Positions 12,933-13,619 of a DNA stretch of 64,000 nt are shown here, piece after piece (within the stretch, counting starts at the first letter, position 1; each line of letters begins with the position of its first letter). Origin of the DNA: Waddliaceae bacterium (GTDB taxonomy: Bacteria > Chlamydiota > Chlamydiia > Chlamydiales > SLFE01). Made by a program: the position numbers and the translations under genes. The notes beneath the pieces are model-generated. The model did no database searches, had not been told where the DNA came from, and was given only the letters and a program-made list of their open reading frames with translations. Location of the stretch: the NCBI GenBank assembly GCA_963771045.1, contig CAVYRW010000004.1, forward strand, positions 608,001 through 672,000, in the 5' to 3' direction.

Positions 12933-13619
12933 ATGAAAGTTGTGTCAATTTTTTTAACAGGGGCATGTTGTTTTGCCTCTCAAACTTTTGCTCTGGAAAT
13001 GATTGTTAAAACTCCGTCGGATAAAGTTTTGCTTATCGACGCGGCCTCGTCGGATACTGTTGAAAACATTGAGGACTTTATCGATTTGTATGAACAGTGT
13101 CCCGAGAACTTGAGGAAAGAGGTGTTCGGAAATGCTGCTGTAGAGATAGACGAAGTCCTTCCGGAATCGGGGCCGGTGCGTAATTATCTCGTACCTTTGA
13201 CGCAGAAGGAAAAAGAAGATATCGCCTATATTGTCAATACTTTGTCCGATCAGCCGACGCCTAAGCTGCTGTTTTACAAATCCTCTCTCAATCAGGCAGG
13301 GGATCGGATCAATCATGTGCATCCGCTGAATTTTATGCTGGTGATCTTTACCGATGATCTTTTGAAAGTGAAAGTCCGTAATATCAAAAAGAAGGGATGG
13401 GTTTGGAAAGATTTTCTGGCGGGAATCCGCAATAGCATGAATGAAGAAAATGCAAAAAACAACTTAAAGGCGGAGTTTTTTTACGATTTTGCCTCAAAAA
13501 TTGACATAGACTATAGCAAAATTGAAACCCCCATTGCTAAAAGGAATTGGGATGAGTTGGTGAGTATCCTGATGAAACATGCCGAAAGCCAGGGCGACAA
13601 CGACCGGTATAAAATGTAA
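12933..13619 (+). CDS. Exported protein with N-terminal ubiquitin-like domain
   Basis: GGAGG RBS, signal peptide (…SQTFA), then 60 aa aligning without gaps to ubiquitin 1-60. Confidence 0.7.
   Translation: MKVVSIFLTGACCFASQTFALEMIVKTPSDKVLLIDAASSDTVENIEDFIDLYEQCPENLRKEVFGNAAVEIDEVLPESGPVRNYLVPLTQKEKEDIAYIVNTLSDQPTPKLLFYKSSLNQAGDRINHVHPLNFMLVIFTDDLLKVKVRNIKKKGWVWKDFLAGIRNSMNEENAKNNLKAEFFYDFASKIDIDYSKIETPIAKRNWDELVSILMKHAESQGDNDRYKM

Follow-up and report, generated by a model that had tools for sequence, protein, structure and literature searches.

The closest described relative of the protein presented here is CT734 of Chlamydia trachomatis (Y734_CHLTR, AAC68329.1; CTL0103), a "probable lipoprotein" that shares its helical domain and an export signal, and that is listed as Chlamydiales-specific with a hypothetical function in the accessible part of PMC1403754. 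A transposon insertion in the last codon of CT734, recorded in the portion of PMC11925237 available, has little bearing on this function. Protochlamydia pc0944 (CAF23668.1; pCOMP cluster 58), the two names being matched through gene order and the adjoining lipocalin pc0943, shares the helical domain as well; it is placed with CT734 in outer-membrane cluster 58, pc0945 being listed as a beta-barrel with a predicted signal peptide (PMC2811131 supplement). Both pc0944 and pc0945 are transcribed during infection, the former constitutively and the latter in mid-cycle (PMC5451489 supplement).

Exported ubiquitin-type proteins have also been described in bacteria. The secreted ubiquitin of Bacteroides fragilis, BfUbb (PDB 8hm1), is a stand-alone antibacterial toxin of 76 aa with 63% identity to human ubiquitin (accessible part of PMC3352274); it is cleaved by signal peptidase I at ubiquitin residue 1, is devoid of the terminal glycine and is not conjugatable (accessible part of PMC5705921). 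Type-2 ubiquitin-like domains (Rad23, BAG6, OASL; PF00240) offer a further parallel, as non-conjugated N-terminal beta-grasp domains carried by larger proteins. The latter are eukaryotic, cytosolic or nuclear, and bind the proteasome or other partners through an Ile44-type patch. The CT734 family and secreted bacterial ubiquitin are already known. By contrast, our literature search, which left most subscription journals outside its reach, returned no description of a ubiquitin-derived head on CT734 relatives or of their link with a barrel, in line with the original prediction that this architecture was undescribed; the accessible parts of two articles on chlamydial and bacterial ubiquitin-related genes (PMC4209131, PMC13720258) do not mention a CT734 head either.

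The window, i.e. the whole stretch of 64,000 nucleotides analysed, belongs to a Chlamydiota genome of 2.57 Mb (90.6% complete), placed in family f1 of our genome tables, with Waddlia chondrophila in f12. It encodes at 12933-13619 (+) a protein of 228 aa, hereafter P0001, whose ORF was judged real and for which a scan of contigs for relatives retrieved one locus, 91% identical. The features of this locus are the following:

12044..12835, minus strand: partner gene, encoding a predicted outer-membrane beta-barrel of 263 aa (orthologue Pfam matches, atlas look-alikes)
12857..12885, minus strand: sigma-70-type promoter-like site TTGACA-17-TATATT, 11/12 consensus match, facing the barrel gene
12922..12926, plus strand: GGAGG ribosome-binding-site-like motif, 6 nt ahead of the P0001 ATG
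12933..12992, plus strand: signal peptide (residues 1-20) predicted to be cleaved by signal peptidase I at TFA/L (heuristic)
12993..13100, plus strand: ubiquitin-derived beta1-beta2-alpha1 remnant, acidic, residues 21-56 (phmmer, profiles, AlphaFold model)
13101..13172, plus strand: residues 57-80, short helix, strand 69-72 and linker (AlphaFold, hhalign)
13173..13619, plus strand: CT734-family all-helical domain, residues 81-228, and stop (family search, alignment, AlphaFold)

The earlier assignment of P0001 to Sec-type signal-peptide proteins agrees with our own heuristics, based on hydrophobicity and on the residue at -1, by which P0001 displays the export-signal features of the CT734 family, namely a hydrophobic stretch followed by an alanine at -1. 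By the same heuristics, a hydrophobic N-terminal stretch was found in 93 of 98 aligned relatives and A, G or S at -1, the position preceding ubiquitin residue 1, in 89/98. Signal peptidase I would cleave after Ala20, and this predicted TFA/L site places the mature start of P0001 at ubiquitin position 1, as in BfUbb (accessible part of PMC5705921). A lipobox pattern was matched by only 4/98 environmental CT734-family members and, by eye, the Cys12/Cys13 pair of P0001 does not form a canonical lipobox. Unlike CT734, which is annotated as a lipoprotein and bears a basic low-complexity linker without any ubiquitin-derived head, P0001 is predicted to be cleaved by signal peptidase I, carries an acidic remnant of ubiquitin and is encoded next to a divergently oriented barrel gene.

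The helical domain is the conserved part of the protein. A full-library search recovered 1241 family proteins at E ≤ 0.001, and CT734-family matches were present in 232 of 250 Chlamydiota genomes (genome G005 being unscored in the phylum searches), with the shared part corresponding to residues 81-228 of P0001. This core aligns with CT_734 (AAC68329.1) at a BLASTP E-value of 1e-17, with 21% identity over 146 aa, and displays the features of the family domain (an R-x-Y start, HP and W motifs), G123, H130, P131 and W206 being invariant in 98 sequences. AlphaFold models it as all-helical with high confidence, confirming that a helical domain follows the head, as was first proposed, although both its CT734 identity and the divergent barrel gene had then been missed. 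Among 48,161 chains, a fold search with this domain returned only generic helical proteins and no clear match (best Z 4.9), a model-based result that would point neither to a known nor to a new fold. The domain may already be defined by PF26330, a newer Pfam family precomputed on four relatives.

This core also occurs in other contexts. The window genome encodes a second family member (L003 1489-1980, minus strand; G000:C4:1453382-1453771), a headless paralogue of 163 aa on a long tree branch, made of signal and core only. In the window's own family, one protein (L074 1681-2655, G038) carries two tandem cores without head. Larger proteins of 446-593 aa (L039 2032-3549, L048 2048-3388 and L042 642-2423) end in a CT734 domain in families f9 and f23; two of them match Peptidase_M16_C (E 5e-4 and 1e-6), and in f9 the next gene often encodes a sulfatase-domain membrane protein.

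The N-terminal head of P0001 was compared with ubiquitin at several levels. A phmmer search against the PDB aligned residues 21-75/76 without gaps to ubiquitin, with a best single-ubiquitin chain at E = 0.01, the much lower E-values obtained in the same search being sums over polyubiquitin repeats. This alignment contains 14 identities over 55 positions, and 15/56 (~27%) when L56 is added, reproducing the 15 identities and the ungapped alignment counted by hand; as also claimed, LRGG and K48 are absent, an alanine occupying the Lys48 position. P0001 differs from BfUbb in being ~27% identical to ubiquitin over 56 residues, truncated, fused to a helical domain of 148 aa and part of a family that, unlike BfUbb, is spread across many chlamydial families. 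The Pfam match expected for residues 21-95 did not materialize, either for this segment or for the whole of P0001, even at E ≤ 10, leaving P0001 short of the curated PF00240 cut-off (25.4 bits); an NCBIfam scan of P0001 gave zero matches and an ESM Atlas search nothing usable.

Since the match between P0001 and ubiquitin is borderline when taken alone, we examined its relatives with profiles of the head. One profile, seeded with 10 relatives that have a complete domain and all lie outside the clade of the window, gave P0001 10.2 bits, a score reached by 1 of 5000 shuffles, and at least 10 bits to 84 of 129 N-termini (10 of them seeds), against 0/2580 shuffles. For another, 98 of 153 family proteins, those judged by eye to have a head-sized N-terminal extension, were aligned (alignment A2), and 20 rows with a ubiquitin-type Pfam match or a visibly fuller head were then removed (A3). 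The resulting profile of 78 members, from which the clear ubiquitin-like ones are excluded, still retrieved ubiquitin residues 1-47 as top PDB matches, with E-values of 0.002-0.017 for single ubiquitin chains.

Complete ubiquitin-like domains are found at the same position in several relatives. Among 27 relatives picked for a Pfam scan, P0018, P0027, P0127 and P0048 passed the PF00240 cut-off (E 3.7e-14 to 3.5e-9), as did two further genome loci, and 12/98 aligned members matched PF00240 at E ≤ 0.01. The model of P0018 has the complete ubiquitin topology: Foldseek aligned its head with ubiquitin, NEDD8, BAG6 and BfUbb (8hm1 being among its matches) at a target TM of about 0.8, and VIA with ubiquitin-like domains, type-2 ones included, at Z 12-13 and rmsd 1.4-2.5 over 70-77 residues; each of the 50 VIA matches listed is a ubiquitin-like domain or a protein fused to one. 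The missing Pfam match of P0001, its single-chain E of only 0.01 and a structural overlay with a Z of about 2 might suggest that a beta-beta-alpha segment resembles ubiquitin by chance; we nevertheless give this option almost no credence, as it is already largely refuted by the profile tests against shuffles, by the 78-member profile and by the structure matches of P0018, complete and truncated heads forming a continuous series at one position. The head of P0001 is homologous to, and descends from, a ubiquitin-type domain, consistent with the ubiquitin-derived N-terminus first proposed.

The claim of a full ubiquitin-like domain in P0001, on the other hand, was not confirmed. The AlphaFold model, with a pLDDT of 86-93 across residues 21-70, displays strands at 21-26 and 32-37, helices at 43-55 and 58-68, and a short strand at 69-72 that is possibly the equivalent of ubiquitin beta5 in this model. 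In the model, the head is a three-strand structure containing a helix at 58-68 and no beta3-beta4 hairpin, which the hhalign comparison with the complete-domain relative P0018 likewise bridges by a gap; the originally proposed F45 match (EVF against LIF) lies within a helix of the model. Ubiquitin chains overlay only ~40 residues of it (17-57; Z 2.1-2.2, rmsd 3.0), whole-chain structure searches with P0001 being dominated by the helical domain and the head having been folded only within the full chain. The anticipated beta-grasp fold is seen in the model of the complete relative P0018; P0001 is devoid of strands 3-4 with their Ile44 patch, of Lys48 and of the Gly-Gly end. A similar partition was observed across the family: 62 of the 89 profile-matching relatives retain beta-beta-alpha only, another 10 extend as far as beta3, and a full domain is present in 17, among them the 10 seeds of the profile. 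Other members are headless, and homologues share the domain in part only. Short proteins related to the P0018 head were sought as possible donors of the ubiquitin domain, and no candidate emerged.

The second component of the locus is the divergent gene, whose product has a signal-peptide-like start and a Phe as last residue. The Pfam scan of this protein itself gave no match and a PDB sequence search with its profile returned one chance-level match. Among its orthologues, 6/26 match PF13505 at E ≤ 0.1 (best 1.5e-8) and one matches PF03797; some are annotated in the source records as "outer membrane protein beta-barrel domain", and a share of its atlas look-alikes (0.97-0.98) carries OMP_b-brl, autotransporter-beta or OpcA families. 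Promoter-like sites are not enriched in the region (3, against a shuffle mean of 3.4), the one at 12857..12885 resting on its consensus match only. The barrel profile matches 143/250 genomes, and the scores drop sharply beyond 67 close orthologues (E < 1e-47). Each of these 67 is located 2.5 kb or less from a CT734-family gene: divergently in 50 cases, upstream on the same strand in 14 and downstream on the same strand in 3. The pairing is therefore conserved and survives rearrangement. A more distant barrel paralogue occurs elsewhere in the window genome (G000:C4:2133589-2134245, minus strand; E = 1.2e-20), among three matches in all.

Among 94 fetched loci, a head scoring at least 10 bits was found in 46/68 genomes with an adjacent barrel, against 1/26 without, which describes a pattern rather than a test, the 94 genomes having been hand-picked across families, kin not being independent and one of the two head profiles having been made from related sequences. 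The barrel does not appear to need the head, as 22 of the 68 barrel-adjacent genes score below 10 bits, some being visibly eroded and some headless. The core, in turn, would have barrel-independent uses, since it occurs without a nearby barrel in 26/94 genomes, several of which fuse it behind domains such as Peptidase_M16_C. No close barrel orthologue was found in 29 Chlamydiaceae genomes, nor any head in five Chlamydiaceae loci.

Based on this conserved pairing, we tentatively propose that the CT734-family core and its truncated ubiquitin head constitute a Sec-exported periplasmic partner of the neighbouring barrel, both proteins forming one envelope module, a reading we hold as plausible rather than established. 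The core would fulfil the conserved role, probably by docking onto the barrel from the periplasm or by handling an envelope lipid, as suggested by the lipid and envelope enzymes that recur among its neighbours; lipocalin, a lysyl-PG synthase domain and a sulfatase were found as neighbours in single loci scanned. In the head, the beta3-beta4/Ile44 face would have been lost and the beta1-beta2-alpha1 face kept, its acidic surface binding a bacterial partner. The adjacency might instead reflect nothing more than common regulation of envelope genes, with the helical protein acting alone and without contact with the barrel, for instance as a periplasmic lipid carrier or chaperone. This agrees with the persistence of the core in barrel-less genomes, with the differing transcription of pc0944 (constitutive) and pc0945 (mid-cycle) in Protochlamydia, and with the recurrence of lipid-related neighbours; yet a shared divergent promoter alone would be insufficient to explain an adjacency maintained in three orientations, including both same-strand orders, and we regard this option as very improbable.

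Other neighbours are less constant. A DUF3419 gene, always together with the barrel, was considered as a fixed third member and rejected, being present in 29/94 loci only and not found by tblastn in the window genome (90.6% complete). Among the loci listed, a Trp/Tyr permease downstream of P0001 occurs only in the window's own family. The CT734 gene itself is flanked by a CT733-like gene on one side and an alanine-symporter-like gene on the other. The CT734-family genes of families f6, f8 and f28 adjoin a conserved ORF of 386-436 aa with a TSSGGxGH-like start (L043, L044, L050, L051, L053, L054, L055 and L057), which looks like a glycosyltransferase; one such ORF was scanned and gave no Pfam match at E ≤ 0.001.

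The head is strongly acidic, with a net charge of -11 in P0001, a median of -8 and negative values in 97/98 relatives, and Glu occupies the Lys11 position in 57/98 members. It is less conserved than the core (mean identity of 22% against 42%), residues 57-80 reaching a mean pairwise identity of 11%, and its conserved positions are mainly alternating hydrophobic core residues together with the glycine of the beta1-beta2 turn, surface positions being merely acidic. The remnant is under purifying selection and is not neutral debris: between P0001 and a same-genus orthologue, pN/pS was 0.15 for the remnant and 0.09 for the core, and 0.10 and 0.07 respectively in a second pair. Values of 0.33 and 0.48 were obtained for the remnant in two further pairs, and 0.93 in a fifth with few changes (3 synonymous, 10 non-synonymous).

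These patterns bear on another explanation, in which the head would be without specific partner and serve as a folded spacer, or as a solubility or folding aid for the exported core, being kept only while it folds, hence its erosion and frequent loss. The predominance of hydrophobic core residues and of the turn glycine among conserved positions is what such a role would leave, as are the repeated head losses, the headless paralogue of the window genome and the many orthologues reduced to signal and core; in addition, one lineage, the f5 genus (L006, L011, L017), has a longer N-terminal region which, by eye, resembles a duplicated, eroded head. A mere spacer is harder to reconcile with a selection on the remnant that nearly equals that of the core in the first two pairs, and with the near confinement of the head to barrel-adjacent genes (46/47), even though the latter follows phylogeny. 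We consider it a possible but rather unlikely explanation.

The original prediction saw instead a mimic or decoy for the host ubiquitin machinery. In its most developed form, the barrel would export or display the protein on the surface or in the inclusion lumen, where the head would engage host ubiquitin-binding proteins as a non-conjugatable mimic, a reading that gains most in plausibility where the domain is complete, as in the relatives that match eukaryotic ubiquitin, NEDD8, BAG6 and Rad23 (Pfam E down to 3.7e-14). The non-conjugatable nature of the head was confirmed, as no RGG was detected in any N-terminal region of at least 45 aa and no family member ends in GG. The predicted cleavage at ubiquitin position 1, as in BfUbb, and the autotransporter-beta family carried by some barrel look-alike clusters are also compatible with a displayed mimic. 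PF00240 matches in 20/250 chlamydial genomes indicate that chlamydiae do carry such domains, mostly in other proteins, whose N-termini, by eye, are not signal-peptide-like. Furthermore, 13 of 19 Waddlia proteins detected in the host cytosol had signal peptides (accessible part of PMC7143554), implying that Sec-exported chlamydial proteins can get there, which argues against a strictly envelope-bound partner.

Several observations run counter to mimicry. Most ubiquitin receptors read the Ile44 patch borne by strands 3-4. P0001 and 62/89 relatives are devoid of this half, P0001 differing in this from Rad23, BAG6 and OASL as it does by its domain following a bacterial signal peptide. The substitution of Lys11 by Glu, the missing RGG and the median charge of -8 depart further from ubiquitin, merely 12/98 members match PF00240 at E ≤ 0.01, and the head, absent from the Chlamydiaceae loci examined, has been lost several times, the helical domain and the association with a barrel gene persisting. 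The decoy claim drew little support from these data; we regard mimicry as improbable, and the protein is likely to be an envelope component rather than a decoy for the host ubiquitin system. Equally speculative and improbable in our view is a broader scenario, that of an ancient export-and-display system made of two genes in environmental chlamydiae, in which a stand-alone autotransporter-like barrel would present a ubiquitin-headed CT734 at the surface or inclusion, complete heads (in Waddlia-related lineages) would engage host ubiquitin receptors, other lineages would have eroded the head, and Chlamydiaceae would have lost both barrel and head, leaving CT734 as a lipoprotein relic.

Returning to the envelope module, its history was approached with a quick, unrooted tree in which the core was represented by 119 rows and 147 columns. 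A single branch (support 97), to which the Chlamydiaceae also belong, contains the whole set of 64 head-bearing rows, and the head label changes 20 times on the tree, at least 6 of these changes being forced by well-supported branches. One early gain followed by many losses would fit this distribution, and is not demonstrated by an unrooted tree with so many label changes. Under this scenario, a eukaryote-type ubiquitin-like domain would have been acquired between signal and core at an early stage of this chlamydial branch, and the Chlamydiaceae would later have lost barrel and head, the genus Chlamydia tethering the same core by a lipid anchor instead. Such a loss would mark an envelope difference between pathogens and amoebal symbionts. 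For CT734, a functionally uncharacterized protein that nearly all chlamydiae possess, the present data provide two handles, namely the predicted barrel as partner and a host-type domain that can be followed across families as it erodes step by step. The head thereby offers a clear case of a eukaryote-type ubiquitin domain in a putative bacterial envelope protein, trimmed to a half-domain still under selection. The pair being present and transcribed in the culturable Protochlamydia, and present in Parachlamydia and Waddlia, its binding and location are testable now.

Several additional observations were made in these genomes. Other chlamydial proteins carry one to five ubiquitin-family domains, with up to 89 bits against PF00240 (L101; L119 in G226:C183; L099 in G034; L100 and L122 in G147; L127 in G133), a few of them with Gly-Gly after the domain. 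Within the window, the region 5497-7447, encoding a UDP-sugar pyrophosphorylase, is overlapped upstream by an ORF that uses a different frame (5497-5844); the SprT-like ORF of 9753-10379 looks frameshifted near its start when compared with its relative L001, both oddities being possibly assembly errors. Two proteins without Pfam match were noted, one of 137 aa with hydrophobic segments (7474-7887, minus strand), which may be of the inclusion-membrane type, and one of 92 aa, signal-peptide-like with a Tyr/Arg/Gly-rich tail (14927-15205, minus strand). Finally, the ORF at 11101-11889 (minus strand), which follows the barrel gene in the same orientation, encodes 262 aa with an N-terminal F-box-like PF12937 match (E = 4e-4, below the cut-off), and is a candidate for the type of F-box effector that has expanded among environmental chlamydiae.
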